From the IMG/VR virus record IMGVR_UViG_3300009678_001574: a DNA stretch of 64,000 bases; one strand, 5' to 3'. This DNA is from a virus. Below are positions 796-39,507 of this stretch, one piece after another. The number at the start of each line of letters is the position of its first letter. Positions within the stretch are counted from its first letter, which is position 1. The translations under genes were made by a program, and so were the position numbers. The notes under the pieces were generated by a model. That model saw nothing but the letters and a program-made list of their open reading frames with translations, ran no database searches and had not been told where the DNA came from.

Positions 796-1098
796 ATGAA
801 GGAATTTTACGATGAATGGACTGACGGTGAGGTTACTGATTATTTACGAACCTTTCCAGTTTTAGTCTTATTTAGAGTACATACTTCAAGTAAAAGTGCT
901 GAACTAATTATATATGGTCGCATGAACGAGGCTCAAAAGTTTGCCCTCAAAACGGCTATAGTATCTATGTTCGGCGGAAATGCTTTATCGAAAGGTTCGT
1001 GCGACAAAATAAACGAGTTCGCCGAAAAGTGGTATAACAGAAATGTTAAAACTATTAAAACGAGAGTAATAAACATTAAGAAGAAGAATATAAAATGA
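796..1098 (+). CDS. Hypothetical protein
   Basis: 100-aa ORF in a tightly packed operon. Confidence 0.6.
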   Translation: MKEFYDEWTDGEVTDYLRTFPVLVLFRVHTSSKSAELIIYGRMNEAQKFALKTAIVSMFGGNALSKGSCDKINEFAEKWYNRNVKTIKTRVINIKKKNIK

Positions 1099-1508
1099 CA
1101 GAAGAGCGTTCTGAAATTAAATTAGTCTCAAAATCTTGGGGCTTCGAAAAAATAATAGTAAATGATAAATACTGTGGTAAAATATTATTCATAGTAAAGG
1201 GTCATTCCACTTCTCTTCATTTCCATCAAATAAAAGATGAAACTTTTTATATTCAAAGTGGTAAGGTTCTAGTGTATTTTAGTGATGACTTGGCTAAAAT
1301 GAAAGAGCTAAGCAAGCCTGATGAAGATGGAATGACCAATCCTGAGATATACCAAAATCTATCAAAAGTTACACTTAATATTGGAGACAGTTTTCGCATT
1401 CCGCCAAAACGAGTCCATAAAATAATCGCGCTAGAAGACACTGAGCTTTTTGAGTTTTCAACGAGGCATGTTGATAGCGATAGCCATAGATTAATAAACG
1501 GGAGTTAA
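1095..1508 (+). CDS. Cupin-domain protein (mannose-6-P isomerase / lyxose isomerase-like)
   Basis: K.WG.E...N.KYCGKIL, SLHFHQIKDETFYI and RIPP..VHKI cupin motifs. Confidence 0.75.
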   Translation: MTEERSEIKLVSKSWGFEKIIVNDKYCGKILFIVKGHSTSLHFHQIKDETFYIQSGKVLVYFSDDLAKMKELSKPDEDGMTNPEIYQNLSKVTLNIGDSFRIPPKRVHKIIALEDTELFEFSTRHVDSDSHRLINGS

Positions 1509-1513
1509 TTAAG

Positions 1514-1837
1514 ATGTCAGAAGAAAATAAAAAAGTCGATATAAAACAATTATCATTAATGGACTTATATGCAATATATAATTTCATTAGATCTACAGAG
1601 AATAGACCTTTTACAATGGGCGCTGGCAAAGAAGCAAAAGCTTTAGTCAGAAACAGAACCGTTGAAATAGAAACTGAACTGATGATGCGCACTTTTGGTT
1701 GTAATCCCTTTACGATGAAGCCTGATAGCAAAGTGGTTGAGGGTGAAATGCCAGAGAAGATTGATCTAACAAAATTCGATGAGAAGCCAGAAGACGTTAA
1801 AAGATTTGTCGTAGAAAAAAATAAAGAGGCAAAATAA
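1514..1837 (+). CDS. Hypothetical protein
   Basis: 107-aa ORF coupled to tmk. Confidence 0.6.
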   Translation: MSEENKKVDIKQLSLMDLYAIYNFIRSTENRPFTMGAGKEAKALVRNRTVEIETELMMRTFGCNPFTMKPDSKVVEGEMPEKIDLTKFDEKPEDVKRFVVEKNKEAK

Positions 1838-2469
1838 TGTTCGTAACTTTTGAGGGAGTAGAAGGTTCTTCAAAGACTACACAAGCGGGCTTACTGTCCA
1901 AGTGGCTAGATTCTCAAAACATAGAACATCTTTTAACCAAAGAGCCTGGTGCGGTGCTCTCTAAAGAATGCCAGCAAATAAGACAATTACTATTAAGTCC
2001 GGAGAATCACCTCTCTTCCAGATCTGAATTGTTATTATACTTGGCTGACCGCGCACAACACGTAGATACTTGTATTAGACCAGCGTTAAACCAAAACAAG
2101 TGGGTAGTAAGTGATCGTTATTCATGGAGCACTTATGTATATCAGGGTTTTGGTCGTGGTCTAATAGAAGAGATGGGTGGATTTTTCCGAGGCATGTTAG
2201 ACTATGCTGCTGGAAATTTGTGGCCTGACCTAACATTCATTATGGATGTGCCAGTCGAAATAGGCTTGAAGAGAGCTAAGAGTTCTAATACAGAATTCGC
2301 AGGCGGCGATAGAATGGAATTAGAGGCAATAGAGTTTCATAAGAAATTAAGAATTGGCTTTTTAGAAGTAGCAAAAAATCGTCCAGATAAATGTATTGTA
2401 TTAGATGCTACCAAATCCATTGAGGAGTTGCACGAAGAGGTAAAGAAAGTTCTTCATAAACACATATGA
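1837..2469 (+). CDS. tmk: Thymidylate kinase
   Basis: FVTFEGVEGSSKTTQ P-loop, TKEPG, LYLADRAQH, SDRY. Confidence 0.95.
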   Translation: MFVTFEGVEGSSKTTQAGLLSKWLDSQNIEHLLTKEPGAVLSKECQQIRQLLLSPENHLSSRSELLLYLADRAQHVDTCIRPALNQNKWVVSDRYSWSTYVYQGFGRGLIEEMGGFFRGMLDYAAGNLWPDLTFIMDVPVEIGLKRAKSSNTEFAGGDRMELEAIEFHKKLRIGFLEVAKNRPDKCIVLDATKSIEELHEEVKKVLHKHI

Positions 2470-2684
2470 GCAAAGAACCGTATCTGATTTCTCCACAACT
2501 ATTAAAGAGTATCCAGATTGGCGATGCAATAGATCGAGAACTATTATTAGACTATACTAAAGGACTTATGCACGGAGCGAAGACGCCCGAGCTAAGAATC
2601 TATTGGACCATTATCAATAAGTGGGCCAACAAACATTTTATTACGAAGCATTTTACGGAAGAAGACGATGAAGCAATACCTTGA
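2466..2684 (+). CDS. Hypothetical protein
   Basis: 72-aa ORF overlapping both neighbours. Confidence 0.55.
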
Positions 2685-3486
2685 AACACTTAAATATGTA
2701 TTAGAAAATGGCGATAAAAGAGAAGACCGTACAGGAACTGGAACAATAGGAATGTTTGGTCTTCAGTCACGATACAACCTCGAAAAAGAATTTCCTGCCG
2801 TTACAACTAAACGTTTATTCTTTAAAGGTGTGGTACATGAACTGCTTTGGTTCTTAAAAGGTGATACTAACGTAAAATACTTACAAGACAACGGCGTCCG
2901 TATTTGGGATGAGTGGGCAAATGAAAGTGGCGAACTTGGCCCTGTATATGGTAAGCAATGGAGAAAGTGGGAAGAGTACGGTTATCATCCCGACTACGAC
3001 AAAGAACCCTCTTACATAGATCAGATTGCTGGTGTAATTAAGTCTATAAAAGAAAATCCTAATTCGAGAAGACACATAGTATCAGCATGGAATGTGGGAG
3101 AATTAGAGTACATGAAACTCCCTCCGTGCCATACGATGTTCCAATTCTATGTAGCAAATAATAAATTATCCTGCCAATTGTATCAGCGTTCTGCTGATAT
3201 GTTTTTAGGCGTACCCTTCAACATAGCATCCTATGCCTTATTAACCCATATGATTGCTCAAGTATGTGGATTGGGAGTAGGCGACTTTATACATACGATA
3301 GGTGATGGTCATATATATCTAAACCATTTGGATCAGGTAAAGCAACAATTATCACGTGAGCCTTTACCAGCACCTAAACTTTGGTTGAATCCAGAAATAA
3401 AAGATATTGATTCGTTTAAATATGAGGACATAAAATTGGTGGGCTACGAAAGCCATTCTTCTATCGCAGCACCAATAGCAGTATAA
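2668..3486 (+). CDS. thyA: Thymidylate synthase
   Basis: [49 protein letters not shown]. Confidence 0.97.
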
Positions 3487-3487
3487 A

Positions 3488-3847
3488 ATGGAAGTAGTTG
3501 ATTTACAAGAAAAGATTACTGGACTAAAAGGTTATATATCAGGCCTAAAACAAATAATCAATGCGGCTGAAAAAACAATTACAACGGCAGAAATACAAAT
3601 TATGAGAATTTGTAAGCATGAAGTCGGAATGCAATATGTGGTAGGATACGAAAGTCCTATGGATCCAGAAGATGGTGCAGAGCAATTTCATTGTGAATAC
3701 TGTGGAGTTTGTAATGTGTTATTTGTTATAGAGCCATTTGGTTATTATGGCAAACCAAGACAAACAGAATATAAGACAGTGGGATTGAACGGCGGTTTGT
3801 TAGCGCCGTATTTTATTGATCGCAAAACGATGTGGAAAGGTAAATGA
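3488..3847 (+). CDS. Hypothetical protein (coiled coil plus CxxC)
   Basis: ORF between thyA and folA. Confidence 0.55.
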   Translation: MEVVDLQEKITGLKGYISGLKQIINAAEKTITTAEIQIMRICKHEVGMQYVVGYESPMDPEDGAEQFHCEYCGVCNVLFVIEPFGYYGKPRQTEYKTVGLNGGLLAPYFIDRKTMWKGK

Positions 3848-19460: not shown

Positions 19461-19504
19461 TTAAATATACCTATAAACCTGCGGTGGCGGTGGGTCTGCA
19501 AAGT

Positions 19505-19730
19505 TTGCATAGTGCGCAATCCGGAATCGCTGGCCTGTATAACCTTTTTGCATATCCCGCAACTTTTGCATACAACGCAGCGGAATGCGGTAGGAAAAGA
19601 TTGCATACCTCGCAAACATTGCACAATCGCCACGAATTGCGGACCCGGAAAAGATTGCATACGTCGCAAAAATTGCATACCGCGCAGGCCAAAACGGCGC
19701 CGAACCACGCAAAAATTGCATACGTCGCAA
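19505..19730. repeat. Array 1 of TTGC-N7-GCAA palindromes
   Basis: Perfect copies at 19505, 19548, 19601, 19655, 19716; imperfect at 19566, 19619, 19673. Confidence 0.9.
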
Positions 19731-19741
19731 GTTTTTTTTTC

Positions 19742-19771
19742 TTGACAACGCACCGCGTCATGCGGCAAAAT
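19742..19771 (+). promoter_or_regulatory. Sigma70-like promoter P1 with palindrome in spacer
   Basis: TTGACA-ACGCACCGCGTCATGCGG(18)-CAAAAT. Confidence 0.6.
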
Positions 19772-19867
19772 GGTCGCACAATCGAGGCAAGGCTAGCGGC
19801 ATGGTGCCGCTAATGCCTCGGGAAAGGTATCTCGCAAAATTTAACGCACCGCGTCGGTCGAATTTGC

Positions 19868-19897
19868 TTGCTAACGCGGTGCGGCATGTGAGATACT
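19868..19897 (+). promoter_or_regulatory. Sigma70-like promoter P2 with palindrome in spacer
   Basis: TTGCTA-ACGCGGTGCGGCATGTGA(18)-GATACT; another copy of the palindrome 30 bp upstream (19844). Confidence 0.5.
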
Positions 19898-19952
19898 TGG
19901 AAAATCAACAACGGGCAAGGCATGACGCCAGGCCCACGAAAGGGAAAGCACA

Positions 19953-20228
19953 ATGAACACCGTCCAGACCAGCACCGTCCCCGCCATCGTCGAGACCCCG
20001 GAGCAGGAGCTCACCCGTCTCCGCGCCGAGAATGAGGCGCTCAAGGCTGTCAAGGCCCAGGGTATCAAGGGCATGAAGGTGAGCGAGAAGGGCGCCTTGT
20101 CCATCTACGGCCTCGGTCGCTTCCCGGTCACGCTGTACCGTAGCCAGTGGGAGGCCCTGCTCGCCAAGGCGGAGGACATCAAGGCCTTCATCGAGGCGAA
20201 CGCGGCGAAGCTCAAAGCCAAGGAGTAG
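19953..20228 (+). CDS. Early protein A; coiled coil plus PC4-like beta module
   Basis: GC-rich codons; KVSEKGALSIYGLGRFPVTLY..QW; fold assignment is inference. Confidence 0.75.
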   Translation: MNTVQTSTVPAIVETPEQELTRLRAENEALKAVKAQGIKGMKVSEKGALSIYGLGRFPVTLYRSQWEALLAKAEDIKAFIEANAAKLKAKE

Positions 20229-20232
20229 CTCA

Positions 20233-20303
20233 GGCCGAAACCTAGGGCGCGCTAGTACAGGCGCCCGATGGTCTACGGGTATGGTGCCCGTACTGAGGAG
20301 GCC
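20233..20303 (+). ncRNA. Hammerhead ribozyme (type II, open stem II); predicted cut after 20273
   Basis: GGCC-GAAAC ... GUC / UACGGG-7nt-CCCGUA (stem I) / CUGAGGA-GGCC; complete CUGANGA, GAAA and GUC core. Confidence 0.9.
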
Positions 20304-20306
20304 GTC

Positions 20307-20546
20307 ATGGAAGGTTTGCACGTCGAGTTGCGCCGTCTGCGCATGAAGCCAGCGCCCATGCCCGTGAGTCCGCGTGAGGCTGTCGAGCCCACGCCTACGC
20401 CTGCCGCCGTCAAGGTGGTCAAGGTGTTCAACTCGGGTAGCGCCGAGGAGCGGAAGTTTGCCGAGAACATGGCGGTTATCGCCACGGCCTACCGCAACGG
20501 GCTCATCACGGAAGCCAAGGCCCAGGAGCTCGCGGCCAGACTGTAG
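20307..20546 (+). CDS. Early protein B
   Basis: GC-rich codons; RBS GAGGAG lies in the hammerhead core. Confidence 0.6.
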   Translation: MEGLHVELRRLRMKPAPMPVSPREAVEPTPTPAAVKVVKVFNSGSAEERKFAENMAVIATAYRNGLITEAKAQELAARL

Positions 20547-20580
20547 GACACACATACACACACACCTATGCGTGTGTGTC

Positions 20581-20645
20581 GGGATGCAAGCTATCACCTC
20601 CGCGTGGTGCATCCTGGGCAGGCATGGTGCCTGGCTAACGATGGC
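20581..20645 (+). ncRNA. HDV-like ribozyme 1; predicted cut between 20580 and 20581
   Basis: P1 GGGAUGC/GCAUCCU (G1.U wobble), P2 GCUAUC/GAUGGC, P3 ACC/GGU, L3 UCCGCGU, P1.1 CC/GG, P4 CAGGCA/UGCCUG, J4/2 GCUAAC with catalytic C20635. Confidence 0.9.
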
Positions 20646-20659
20646 AGAAAGTCACGGTC

Positions 20660-20857
20660 ATGTGTCGTGCGGACATTCGACGCCGCGTGGTAGCGGTGTT
20701 GGCCAACGGGTCTATGGGTCCGGGCGCCTTGCAAGATACGCTCTTCGACTTGGAGAGCCGCGAGGTGGCACGGGAATTGCGCGAGCTTGTGAAGCGCGCC
20801 GCCGTGAAACACAACGGCAAGGTCGGTCGCGGCAGTAGGTATGCCCGCGCCGTGTAG
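20660..20857 (+). CDS. Early protein C, small winged-helix-like
   Basis: VVAVLANG.M....L...L...VARELRELVK..AV...G..R...Y; fold is inference. Confidence 0.6.
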   Translation: MCRADIRRRVVAVLANGSMGPGALQDTLFDLESREVARELRELVKRAAVKHNGKVGRGSRYARAV

Positions 20858-20868
20858 GACATACGCCG

Positions 20869-21096
20869 TTGCACACTACGCAACGGTAGGACGGTAAGCA
20901 ATCTGCCTCCGCGTGGCACCGTCCGGGTAACGCTAAAGATTGCACAGTAGGCAAAGGTTGCATAGTACGCAACTCTTGCACACTGACACACACATACACA
21001 TGCACCTAGTTGCATAGTACGCAATCGTTGCGTACCCAGGACGAAGTGGCGTGCTCGCAGAAATTGCGTAGCCCGCAAACTTTGCATACCTGGAAA
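20869..21096. repeat. Array 2 of TTGC-N7-GCAA palindromes
   Basis: Perfect copies at 20869, 20940, 20958, 21010, 21064; imperfect or half sites at 20976, 21028, 21082. Confidence 0.9.
20889..20943 (+). ncRNA. HDV-like ribozyme 2 (minimal P4); predicted cut between 20888 and 20889
   Basis: P1 GGACGGU/ACCGUCC, P2 GCAAUCU/AGAUUGC, P3 GCC/GGC, L3 UCCGCGU, P1.1 CC/GG, J4/2 GCUAA with C20933. Confidence 0.85.
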
Positions 21097-21462: not shown

Positions 21463-21549
21463 CCTAGTCTAAAGCAGCCGGCAGTAGTTAGGCCGCCAGT
21501 CCAAAGCCTGGGAAAGCTCCTAACGGAGTTCAATGCTGATGGGACCTAG
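21463..21549 (+). ncRNA. Twister ribozyme 1; predicted cut 21470/21471
   Basis: U^AA-AGC-A-GC, P3 CGGC/GCCG, P4 CCAG/CUGG, L4 UCCAAAGC, P5, then GCU-GA-UGGG; P2 AGC/GCU and T2 UCCA/UGGG covary relative to other copies. Confidence 0.85.
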
Positions 21550-22155
21550 TAGTGAGGCTTAGTGAGTAGGTAAGGGCGTAGGTAGTTACTGCCACGTTCG
21601 AGACTCAGGCGAAAGTCAGCCAGGTCGAAGGCGTAGCATATACCGACGATAACCTCCAAGGGGCTAAGTAAGCGAACGGCGGTGTTGGCAGCGTGAGCCG
21701 TAATCATGCTGTAGTCTGGTAAGCGGGACTTTAACTCGGCTAGGTGGTGACTCTCACTCGTGTTGGTAGCCACGTTACGGTTGCCCGGTGACTAGGACTC
21801 GCATGGGAATCAGCCCTGCCTAGACAACTTCACAGAGCTTCGGCTCTTGGATTCTATCAGCTTGCGCTTCTGGTAAGGCATATAGCTTTACTCGAAGGCG
21901 TGGTTAGTGGGCTGATAGTCTTACGCTCTCGCAGTTAAAGAGAGCACGCACATGACCACACTCCTCGTTAGGCTTAGATTATGCTAAGCCACGAAAAACT
22001 CGCTTGGTGAGTGGGCCTATTTGGCTGACACCACAAGCCTGCGAGCGGAGTAGTGGTGGCGTGTTTTCGCCAAGCCTAACGAGCGCTTTAGGGGCCGCGC
22101 AGTTCAACCGCGCAATGGTCCCAGAGTTGTGGGTTACCTTGGTGCAAGAAAACCC
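21546..22155 (+). ncRNA. Candidate large structured ncRNA between twisters 1 and 2
   Basis: No convincing long ORF; long-range helices 21574-82/21920-28, 21854-61/21911-18, 21964-75/22072-83; UUCG hairpin 21834-47. Confidence 0.55.
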
Positions 22156-22220
22156 TCGTAATGCGGCAAGCGTATGCTTACGGTCACAAGCCCGTGTAAA
22201 CGCAGAGTGAGAAAGACGAG
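22155..22220 (+). ncRNA. Twister ribozyme 2; predicted cut 22159/22160
   Basis: U^AAUGCGGC, P3 AAGC/GCUU, P4 ACGG/CCGU, L4 UCACAAGC, GCA-GA-GUGA (T2 UCAC/GUGA). Confidence 0.92.
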
Positions 22221-22222
22221 TC

Positions 22223-22435
22223 ATGGATTACTCGTATCTGAAGCATTTGTCCGATGCTCAGTTGCGTACACTCAAGGTCCGGTACGCAATGGCAAAGGGC
22301 AACAGTTGGGAACACAAGCTCTTTTGCGCCGTGGATAGAGTGCTTACCGACCGCGAAGGCGTAACGCACTTCAAGACCGGGCGCATGGGAGACTGCCTGC
22401 ACATGGACCCACTCATGAACCCGAAAGGAATCTGA
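22223..22435 (+). CDS. Early protein E
   Basis: 70-aa ORF directly after twister 2. Confidence 0.6.
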   Translation: MDYSYLKHLSDAQLRTLKVRYAMAKGNSWEHKLFCAVDRVLTDREGVTHFKTGRMGDCLHMDPLMNPKGI

Positions 22436-22438
22436 CCG

Positions 22439-22882
22439 ATGAGCACACAGGAACCCAAAGACAAACCCGGAGTCGTCAACGGCTCCTTCGTCCGCAAAGA
22501 CTTCTACCTCTCACCGCCCGTCAAGGGAGCGCCGGTGGAAGCGTGGGAAGCCTGGCAGAAAGCGGACGACTTGCTTGCCGCCAACGCCAAGCGGAAGCAC
22601 ACCAAGAGCCTCAAGCACGAAGAGGTGCCTGAGTTCCTCCAGCCCAAGGTGCTTAGCAAGGTTGGCGGCGTCTACCGGCAGTCGGCGATGGTGGGCTTCA
22701 TCGGGGACGGAGATACCGCCCGAGTGGAAGCGGCCGTGGATGCCGAGCAGGGCAAGGTGCTGGCGCTCAACTCCTTCCGTCATGGTGGGCGTGGGCAGCA
22801 GACCGCTAGTCGCTCTGGTTCGGCCAAGCGTGCAGCTCGACGGGCAGCGAAGGAAGCCCGCCGCAAGAATACTCGGCACTAA
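22439..22882 (+). CDS. Early protein F (basic C-terminal tail)
   Basis: GC-rich codon usage. Confidence 0.7.
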   Translation: MSTQEPKDKPGVVNGSFVRKDFYLSPPVKGAPVEAWEAWQKADDLLAANAKRKHTKSLKHEEVPEFLQPKVLSKVGGVYRQSAMVGFIGDGDTARVEAAVDAEQGKVLALNSFRHGGRGQQTASRSGSAKRAARRAAKEARRKNTRH

Positions 22883-22901
22883 CACACAAGGGCGCTCACC
22901 C

Positions 22902-22970
22902 GCCCGCTAATGCAGCCTGGAGCAATCCCGCTCTAGCCAGTCACAAGCCTGGATAAATGCAGAGTGGCAT
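22902..22970 (+). ncRNA. Twister ribozyme 3; predicted cut 22908/22909
   Basis: U^AAUGCAGC, P3 CUGGAGC/GCUCUAG, P4 CCAG/CUGG, L4 UCACAAGC, GCA-GA-GUGG. Confidence 0.92.
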
Positions 22971-23040
22971 GTAGGTGGTAGGCACACATATACACACACA
23001 CCTACATACACATACAGTGTGCCAAGAAAGGGTTAAGTAC

Positions 23041-23328
23041 ATGACTGCTACCGAATTTCTCAAGAGCAAGAACGTTCCCTTCGATGGCTTGGATGCGGGC
23101 CAGTGCCGCACCATCGCCAAGGCCTACGGCTGGGCTGCTCCGAAGGCGGGCGTCAGCGTGGTGAGCTACACGCCGACCCAGAGCAAGAAGGGTCCGGGCC
23201 TCTACCTCAAGGTGGAGATCGAGGGAGCGCGTGAGGGCATGTTCCGCCTCTGCGACGGCAACGAGCTCACCCCGGCGGCCCGTGAGGTCATCGCCACCAT
23301 CGGCAACGACTGCGCCGACCTGCTGTAA
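23041..23328 (+). CDS. Early protein G
   Basis: ATG at 23041; GC-rich codons. Confidence 0.7.
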   Translation: MTATEFLKSKNVPFDGLDAGQCRTIAKAYGWAAPKAGVSVVSYTPTQSKKGPGLYLKVEIEGAREGMFRLCDGNELTPAAREVIATIGNDCADLL

Positions 23329-23356
23329 GACAAAGGCACCTGGGCAAGTGTAGAAA

Positions 23357-23420
23357 CTGCCCTGTTAATGCGGCCGGGATAGCCCGCAGGTCACAAGCCC
23401 TGGTAAACGCAGAGTGGCAC
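23357..23420 (+). ncRNA. Twister ribozyme 4; predicted cut 23366/23367
   Basis: U^AAUGCGGC, P3 CGGG/CCCG, P4 CAGG/CCUG, L4 UCACAAGC, GCA-GA-GUGG. Confidence 0.92.
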
Positions 23421-23438
23421 CTCAAACCGGGAGTGAGC

Positions 23439-23789
23439 ATGGGAAGCAGCAACCACAAAGGCATGGACACGTACAACCGCATCATCACCGACGCGCGAGC
23501 CACTGGCAAGCCTATCGGTCCGCAGTTCCACAAGTTCGACTTCCAGCGCAAGATATGGGAGAAGATGAACCTCACCCAGCCGGAAGCGAAGGTGCTCACC
23601 CAGACCCGTACCGCCCAAGCCGTCGTGACCAAAGACCAGACCCGAGAGGCCATCAAGGCCAAGCTCACGGTCAAGGTCACAGCGCCACAGCCTCAGTCCC
23701 TCCGCGAGAAGTACCAGGCTGAGCAACTCAAGAAAATCGCGGACGGCTACAAGGTCGAAGAAGGCATCAAGTACGTCAGCAAAGAGTAG
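23439..23789 (+). CDS. Early protein H
   Basis: GGAG RBS; GC-rich codons. Confidence 0.7.
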   Translation: MGSSNHKGMDTYNRIITDARATGKPIGPQFHKFDFQRKIWEKMNLTQPEAKVLTQTRTAQAVVTKDQTREAIKAKLTVKVTAPQPQSLREKYQAEQLKKIADGYKVEEGIKYVSKE

Positions 23790-23975
23790 TCCCACCCACA
23801 CGGAAGGAAAGGACATGCTGCGTAAAATTTAGCGCCAGTGGCTAAGGCGCGGTATAAGTGCCCACCTACTCCCTTGCGCCTGGACTTGGGAATCAGTAGT
23901 TAAAGCAGGCTGGATACACGGGAGCTACTCATGCTCTGCTCGTGACCGTGTATCGAGATATTGTAGGTAGAGCAA

Positions 23976-24038
23976 TGTTGTTAATGCCACCTGCATAGTG
24001 CAGCCGGTTCCAAGTCCGGAGAAGGCAGAGGAACAACA
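23976..24038 (+). ncRNA. Twister ribozyme 5; predicted cut 23982/23983
   Basis: P1 UGUUG/CAACA, U^AA-UGCC-AC, P3 CUGCA/UGCAG, P4 CCGG/CCGG, L4 UUCCAAGU; T1 AC/GU and T2 UUCC/GGAA covary. Confidence 0.92.
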
Positions 24039-24051
24039 CAAGGAGAAGCCA

Positions 24052-24213
24052 ATGCTCAAGCACAGCCTCGGTGACAAGCTCCGCCCGTTCATCCGTGAAA
24101 CCGTCAAGGCCAACGTGGAGAAGGCCAACCCGCATCTCACCAGCAACCCCAAGCTCCTCGACAACGTGACCCGCTCCATCATCACCAAGGGCCTCGCTCC
24201 TCTGTACCTGTAG
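24052..24213 (+). CDS. Early protein I (53 aa)
   Basis: AGGAG RBS right after twister 5; GC-rich codons. Confidence 0.7.
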   Translation: MLKHSLGDKLRPFIRETVKANVEKANPHLTSNPKLLDNVTRSIITKGLAPLYL

Positions 24214-24248
24214 CTCTCCCGCCCTCTATTGGACTCAGAGGCATGTGA

Positions 24249-24323
24249 GTCCTTAATGCGGCTAGGCACGGTCAAAGCCTAGGAGTCCCAAGCCTCCACA
24301 AACGCAGAGGGATACGAAAGGAC
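24249..24323 (+). ncRNA. Twister ribozyme 6; predicted cut 24254/24255
   Basis: U^AAUGCGGC, P3 UAGGC/GCCUA, P4 GGAG/CUCC, L4 UCCCAAGC, GCA-GA-GGGA. Confidence 0.92.
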
Positions 24324-24429
24324 GTGTATGTATCATAAGTAAGCGCCTAGAAAACTAGTAAGGGCGCAACGACAGAAATACTTACCTAGCACACTCACGT
24401 ATACCTAGGCAATGTGCGTGAGTGTGTGA

Positions 24430-24488
24430 CAGTGTAATGCGGCTATGAGTGGTCCCAAGCCCACCTGAGAAACGCAGAGGGAATCACA
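24430..24488 (+). ncRNA. Twister ribozyme 7 (no P3); predicted cut 24435/24436
   Basis: U^AAUGCGGC, P4 GUGG/CCAC, L4 UCCCAAGC, GCA-GA-GGGA. Confidence 0.9.
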
Positions 24489-24502
24489 ACAAAGGAGAAA
24501 GT

Positions 24503-24724
24503 ATGCTCAAGGTCATTGGTGCGATCACGTTGGTCGGTGGCTTGGCTTTCGGTGCGGCCTACTTCGGCGGGTACATCGACGGCAAGGCAGAGGTTCAGGT
24601 CACGGAGCAGGGTCGCAAGGCTGCTTCGGACACTCTTCGTAGCGCGCAGCAGGGCATCAGCAACGGGCTGAACCGTGCGGCTGATGCGGTCCACAGTGCC
24701 GAGGTTCCCAGCACCCAGCGGTAA
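24503..24724 (+). CDS. Early protein J, N-terminal membrane anchor
   Basis: AAAGGAG RBS; MLKVIGAITLVGGLAFGAAYFGG. Confidence 0.75.
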   Translation: MLKVIGAITLVGGLAFGAAYFGGYIDGKAEVQVTEQGRKAASDTLRSAQQGISNGLNRAADAVHSAEVPSTQR

Positions 24725-24914
24725 GTCGTAGGTTACATAGCTAATCATCCGTCGCCGAAAGGGAAAGGGAAAGGGAATAGTACACAAGCGCCAAGTTAAA
24801 GACGCTCTAAGGCGTAAGCCTACTTGAGCACACTAACAGTAACACGGCGCATCCTTTGAACGAGTAGGAACAGGTCGTTGATTAGCGTTTGATTAAAAGG
24901 CGGGTTAAATGTCC

Positions 24915-24995
24915 TGCCTCAATGCAGCTAGATGGATGCCCTATCTGTCTAACGGTCCCAAGCCCGTAAAGCGCAACGCAAATGCAGAGGGTACA
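24915..24995 (+). ncRNA. Twister ribozyme 8; predicted cut 24920/24921 (C^A)
   Basis: C^AAUGCAGC, P3, P4 ACGG/CCGU, L4 UCCCAAGC, small P5 GCG/CGC, GCA-GA-GGG. Confidence 0.85.
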
Positions 24996-39441: not shown

Positions 39442-39507
39442 TGCTTAAACTCACCGCATACATGGTGTATGCGCCAGTTCCAAGTCTGGGCAAAGAGCGA
39501 GGAAGCG
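39442..39507 (+). ncRNA. Twister ribozyme 9; predicted cut 39446/39447
   Basis: U^AA-ACUC-AC, 8-bp P3 CGCAUACA/UGUAUGCG, P4 CCAG/CUGG, L4 UUCCAAGU, GAGC-GA-GGAA; one A.C mismatch in P2. Confidence 0.8.

Follow-up and report, generated by a model that had tools for sequence, protein, structure and literature searches.

We analysed a 64,000-nt window of the virus record IMGVR_UViG_3300009678_001574 from IMG/VR, and all coordinates given here are positions in that window. Two small genes, ORF A and ORF B, lie on its plus strand and are separated by a 78-nt gap, which is filled by a hammerhead ribozyme. The features of the locus are as follows.

19953..20228, + strand: ORF A (91 aa), ending in TAG (20226-20228), 4 nt ahead of the ribozyme
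20233-20303, + strand: type II hammerhead ribozyme, 71 nt, with a canonical core, Rfam family RF02276 and covariation
20233-36 / 20300-03, + strand: hammerhead stem II, 4 pairs, open end
20237-39, + strand: hammerhead G12 A13 A14 (GAA), canonical
20240-42 / 20270-72, + strand: inner part of stem III, A15.1-U16.1 (A20240-U20272) and two more pairs
20245-50 / 20261-66, + strand: outer part of stem III, six G-C-rich pairs beyond a small internal loop
20267-20274 / 20299-20306, + strand: competing helix of 8 pairs, 2 of them G-U, part of the minimum-energy folds
20273..20274, + strand: predicted self-cleavage site between GUC and U, C20273 being H17 in hammerhead numbering; GUC is invariant in the 4-sequence alignment
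20274-79 / 20287-92, + strand: hammerhead stem I, closed by the 7-nt loop I
20280..20286, + strand: loop I, UAUGGUG, invariant in 4/4 sequences despite three changed stem I pairs
20293-99, + strand: core strand C3-A9, CUGAGGA, canonical
20295..20301, + strand: Shine-Dalgarno sequence (SD) of ORF B, GAGGAGG, made of core G5 A6 G7 G8 A9 and stem II G10.1 G10.2
20304..20309, + strand: 3' tail GUCAUG, spacer and start codon; possible pseudoknot partner of loop I, with complementarity at chance level
20307..20546, + strand: ORF B (79 aa, starting MEGL); its six homologues are 76-96% identical, and five have also been called at 79 aa

Three helices surround the hammerhead core. Stems I and III each end in a loop and stem II is open, which is the type II topology, and every core position within 20233-20303 is canonical (C3 U4 G5 A6 N7 G8 A9 / G12 A13 A14 / A15.1-U16.1 / H17). 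The Rfam model Hammerhead_II (RF02276) matched 20233-20310 with 24 bits, below its gathering score of 37 bits, so that the element fails the formal threshold; the E-value was 0.007 for a 251-nt stretch and 1.8 for the whole window. The sub-threshold score fits the short stem I and the long stem III, in which 27 nt are inserted compared with 13 in the Rfam model.

For comparison we used the DNA of three ORF B homologue loci (L030, L031 and L032), recovered from metagenome contigs in one scan. The gene order is kept in all three: an ORF A homologue, then the ribozyme and ORF B, with HDV-like motifs behind. L030 is near-identical to the window, and L031 and L032 encode ORF B at 76% protein identity, with the ORF A homologue stopping 3 nt before the ribozyme in both. 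RF02276 scored 24 bits in L030 and 27.7 bits in L032, and gave no match to the L031 ribozyme up to an E-value of 1. The gapless alignment of 71 columns holds four sequences, a small sample of three lineages. All 19 of the 19 hammerhead pairs form in every one of them (100% of cells paired), and five pairs show compensatory changes, two in stem II (GGCC, GGGC/GCCC and CGGC/GCCG) and three in stem I. Each stem I or stem II substitution among the relatives is compensatory, and the core bases are invariant except at the free position 7. None of 500 shuffles reached the observed values, and slid partners were only 33-41% paired. The fold is thus shown by sequence comparison to be under selection. 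These comparative data, kept pairing together with covariation, outweigh the failed Rfam score, and on their strength 20233-20303 is a genuine type II hammerhead with self-cleavage predicted after C20273.

ORF B starts at ATG 20307, as the sequence-only reading had proposed, and two alternatives named there were ruled out by the homologues. ATG 20268 lies inside the stem III/cut-site region; the window and L031 have it in the reading frame of ORF B, L032 does not. ATG 20343 (Met13) is replaced by Val in two homologues, and the 12 residues that precede it are conserved. Together with homologues called at 79 aa from MEGL, this places the start at 20307. Pfam and PHROGs assigned no function to either ORF. 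Searches of IMG/VR found no match to ORF B, to the gene after it (20660-20857) or to a pattern specific to the window ribozyme. ORF B likewise had no match by tblastn against a phage collection, and blastn of 19500-21000 against that collection returned only a 72.7% match over 9% of the query. At 29 IMG/VR loci with ORF A homologues (L001-L029) no hammerhead was found downstream of the gene; at most of these loci a G-C hairpin comes next, whose end is a conserved GGGGCCAAAATTTTG-like motif, and behind it an A/T-rich stretch and a TTGAC promoter-like site.

The other genes of the operon carry AGGAG or GGAG 5-6 nt before the ATG, which indicates that the host reads SDs. Between its other ribozymes and the following start lie 10-19 nt, with AGGAG or GGAG directly after the ribozyme. 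Judged by this spacing, a ribozyme followed by an SD is the local rule, of which the hammerhead is the extreme case. Between small ORFs on the plus strand of the window lie ten sub-threshold matches to twister-P1 and two HDV-like ones (21466-24995, 39442-39507, 20579-20648 and 20887-20964), and several of the twisters show the same 10-19 nt to the next ATG with AGGAG or GGAG between. C/A-rich spacers of the ACACACAUACAC type occur at 20547-20578 and 22971-23015, where they separate a stop codon from the ribozyme or start that comes next. In three IMG/VR loci (L167, L170 and L174) hammerheads are followed by comparable CA-rich leaders, ahead of a separate SD. Such spacers may act as non-pairing insulators around ribozymes.

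In the window the catalytic strand CUGAGGA (20293-20299) runs directly into the stem II strand GGCC (20300-20303), and the two together yield GAGGAG at 20295-20300, 6 nt before ATG 20307. Counted from GGAGG (and AGGAGG) the spacer is 5 nt, and the AUG stands 3 nt beyond stem II. That core and stem II supply the SD of ORF B had been read from the sequence at the outset, and we found it exactly so. The L031 and L032 junctions are built differently: the core reads CUGAAGA, stem II has no SD character, and a separate GAGGAG-N6-AUG follows. This is the same SD with the same spacing, moved 9 and 8 nt, respectively, further from the core than in the window. As far as the aligned sequences go, the SD-N6-AUG unit is conserved whether it is fused to the ribozyme or separate from it. 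Since L031 and L032 have the same ribozyme with a separate SD, the overlap is specific to the lineage of the window and L030 and is not required. The same gene stands behind the ribozyme in these relatives, which indicates that coupling is not needed for ORF B expression.

We then surveyed IMG/VR with a pattern for type II hammerheads with stem II GGCC/GGCC and a GUC cut site, which contained no start codon. A start was counted as abutting when an ATG or GTG opening 38 or more codons lay 4-8 nt after the GGAGG position. Among distinct structured hammerheads with G at core position 7, 13 of 17 had an abutting start (complete scan), compared with 11 of 113 with A, C or U at this position among the matches listed (Fisher p 1.6e-8). 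After k-mer dereplication, with the non-G set again drawn from the matches listed, the counts were 11/14 and 5/78 clusters (p 2.5e-8), although the ribozymes may share ancestry beyond what k-mers detect. In the non-G set, among the matches listed, the start mostly lay 16-40 nt downstream, behind a separate SD. A scan of prokaryote genomes gave 76 raw pattern matches, 66 of which had no ribozyme structure; seven of the ten structured hits had the SD-in-core layout, three of them in one contig. In total we found 26 SD-in-core junctions, with 21 unrelated proteins encoded downstream. Thirteen extra hammerheads in the fetched arrays were independent of the search patterns; none has G at position 7, and this set is therefore uninformative on the position-7 link.

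G thus occupies position 7 when, and largely only when, a gene starts directly behind the ribozyme, which argues that the core is used as an SD. At the level of sequence, the overlap of SD and core is shown to recur across phages, tied to G at position 7, more often than by chance. A full-text search covering few subscription journals found no description of a natural hammerhead with an SD in its core, and the layout is apparently an undescribed, recurrent variant of the known type II class. Some IMG/VR hammerheads have U at position 7 and an ATG 5-7 nt after the core (L198, L216, L246, L267 and L173). Here a weaker SD is presumably provided by the 4-nt GAGG of CUGAUGAGG, and the core-SD overlap would then be a continuum and not an all-or-none property.

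Each of G5, A6, G8 and A9 takes part in the active hammerhead core. It follows that pairing of these bases with the anti-SD, and hence 30S binding, and the active fold are mutually exclusive. We estimated the energies involved with nearest-neighbour parameters, which describe secondary structure only and ignore tertiary structure and kinetics. Over five choices of flank, opening the window from SD to AUG was predicted to cost 9.0-9.8 kcal/mol in the uncut RNA and 5.1-6.4 kcal/mol in the 3' product. Part of this masking is due to the competing helix, which extends stem I, is predicted to bury the cut site and part of the SD, and would be lost on cleavage. Minimum-energy folding of the window version does not yield the hammerhead; the fold with the competing helix is better by about 7 kcal/mol. 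For L031 and L032 the predicted opening cost from SD to AUG did not change consistently on cutting. Pairing of the SD with the canonical anti-SD was predicted at -12.1 kcal/mol in the window and -8.9 kcal/mol in L031. The four-pair stem II duplex amounts to -5.9 kcal/mol, so that the uncut ribozyme might simply yield to a 30S subunit.

The sequence-only reading had proposed that ribozyme folding and translation initiation compete. This stood in so far as an SD in the core excludes the active fold and the predicted opening cost falls from 9-10 to 5-6 kcal/mol on cutting; it is weakened as a general switch by the sister contigs, which have neither the overlap nor the predicted unmasking. On this sequence comparison gating would be dispensable.

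The same reading had suggested that loop I can pair with the start codon. Complementarity exists: UAUGGU and GUCAUG (20304-20309) allow six pairs, three of them G-U, worth -4.8 kcal/mol. It is no better than in shuffled loops, which equalled the loop I-tail pairing in 5.7% of cases for the window and 12.5% for L031. L031 and L032 can pair UAUGG with CCAUG, where the partner lies several bases beyond stem II, past the separate SD. Among the matches listed, 130 related IMG/VR hammerheads gave no excess of loop-tail pairing over shuffles. A loop I pseudoknot of at least four pairs, formed just 3' of stem II, has been described for the majority of type II hammerheads (Perreault et al. 2011, PMC3088659). 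The invariance of loop I while stem I changes hints, in the four sequences, at some constraint. Cutting would not release the pairing of loop I with the start codon, as the two partners remain together on the 3' product.

These results suggest the following model. The hammerhead between ORF A and ORF B of what would be an early phage operon would cut the transcript after C20273. Before cutting, the SD of ORF B would be held either in the active fold or in the competing helix with the cut-site strand. Cutting would deprive the SD of both partners, because the 5' fragment, held by only four pairs, would carry away the opposite strand of stem II together with the strand of the cut site. The ORF A message would then end in the stem III hairpin. 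In the 3' product the stem I hairpin would come first, and the strong SD, now free, and the AUG would stand immediately behind it. RiboJ likewise keeps a hairpin in front of the ribosome-binding site (RBS). ORF B would be translated mainly from the cut message. Self-cleavage, product release and the effect on translation are plausible steps that we infer, and to the model as a whole, from the cut through release of the 5' fragment to translation of ORF B mainly from cut RNA, we give slightly better than even credence.

A rival account, which we hold possible although we lean against it, is compaction alone. The ribozyme would cut the operon message, and the overlap of SD and core would reflect the lack of room between phage genes together with the freedom of position 7 and stem II to vary; the weak four-pair stem II would be opened easily by ribosomes, and ORF B translation would be independent of cutting. 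The separate SD of the sister lineages, 8-9 nt further on, agrees with this, as does an SD:anti-SD helix predicted to be much stronger than stem II. So does the generally tight packing: 3-4 nt separate the ORF A stop from the ribozyme, and 10-19 nt lie between other ribozymes of the operon and the start that follows. However, no more than those 8-9 nt are saved by the overlap, at least 21 unrelated genes are preceded by the fused layout, and the uncut start region of the window is predicted to be masked by 3-4.5 kcal/mol more, all of which speaks against compaction.

The coupling might also run in the reverse direction, for which the sequence-only reading had left room. A 30S subunit on the SD, or a ribosome terminating at the ORF A stop 4 nt upstream of stem II, would block folding, so that only poorly translated transcripts would be cut and marked for a different fate. 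The SD in the core and an ORF A stop within the ribosome footprint of the 5'-side strand of stem II are consistent with such an arrangement. We nevertheless consider it improbable, as the ribozyme would be complete before the downstream bases needed for 30S binding leave the polymerase, giving folding a head start. Least probable of all, in our judgement very much so, is that the element does not work as a ribozyme and is a hammerhead-like relic or chance motif, GAGGAGG being an ordinary SD. The low Rfam score (24 against 37 bits, E 1.8 on the whole window) and a minimum-energy fold other than the hammerhead would fit a relic, but stem I and II substitutions that are all compensatory, a core invariant except at free position 7 and an operon with about ten other self-cleaving ribozyme motifs would not.

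The closest known relatives are the type II hammerheads clustered between prophage and phage genes, for which a role in dividing long phage transcripts into messages of one gene each was proposed (Perreault et al. 2011, PMC3088659). The words translation and ribosome are absent from that paper, and the nearest example in it has a ribozyme located 13 nt upstream of a start codon. The window element shares with them the core, the open-stem-II topology and a place among small phage genes in a multi-ribozyme operon. It differs in that the core itself is the SD, with G at position 7, and in its long stem III and sub-threshold Rfam score.

Cleavage and translation have been joined by design in hammerhead switches, such as RBS-masking aptazymes (reviewed in PMC12192606), and in ribozyme-assisted polycistronic expression (PMC9872166). 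As in these switches and insulators, including RiboJ, cutting is proposed in the window to free or standardise the RBS and to split a polycistronic RNA. The engineered versions are man-made, and usually their SD is either masked within a lengthened stem I or positioned behind the ribozyme, whereas in the window a natural ribozyme has its own catalytic bases as the SD. In a chrysovirus, a eukaryotic RNA virus, the ORF downstream of a hammerhead is no longer translated when the ribozyme carries a catalytic point mutation (Lopez-Galiano et al. 2026, PMC13725137), and HDV-like ribozymes of R2/L1Tc retrotransposons are needed for translation initiation (reviewed in PMC6765202). Like these, the window ribozyme stands directly upstream of an ORF. 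The chrysovirus and R2/L1Tc cases concern eukaryotic cap-independent initiation without an SD and show no overlap of the core with a ribosome-binding motif, in contrast to the window.

The role of self-cleaving ribozymes in bacteria was still considered open in a 2019 review (PMC6765202). Where catalytic bases are the ribosome-binding site, cutting is physically linked to translation. Since the ORF A-ORF B junction exists in nature both fused and unfused, the question of whether cutting affects translation is directly testable. G at the sole free core position together with an abutting start codon provides a simple sequence signature for finding more cases. Tentatively, and with less confidence than for the locus itself, phage hammerheads with G7 may form a widespread natural class of irreversible, cleavage-licensed starts. 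The downstream gene would be untranslatable until the RNA is cut and the 5' fragment shed, and the balance of active fold and competing helix would set the delay. If this were true, phage hammerheads would gain a defined job.

One MAG contig (L355, titled Salinarimonas sp.) carries three SD-in-core hammerheads within 2.8 kb (874-3675), and one IMG/VR contig (L173, 1142-5156) seven type II hammerheads within 4 kb. The stem III layout of the window (20240-20273), ACC/GGU followed by a UA/GAU internal loop and a G-C hairpin, recurs in two otherwise different IMG/VR hammerheads, L034 (about 150-180) and L156 (minus strand), and may be the signature of a sub-family.
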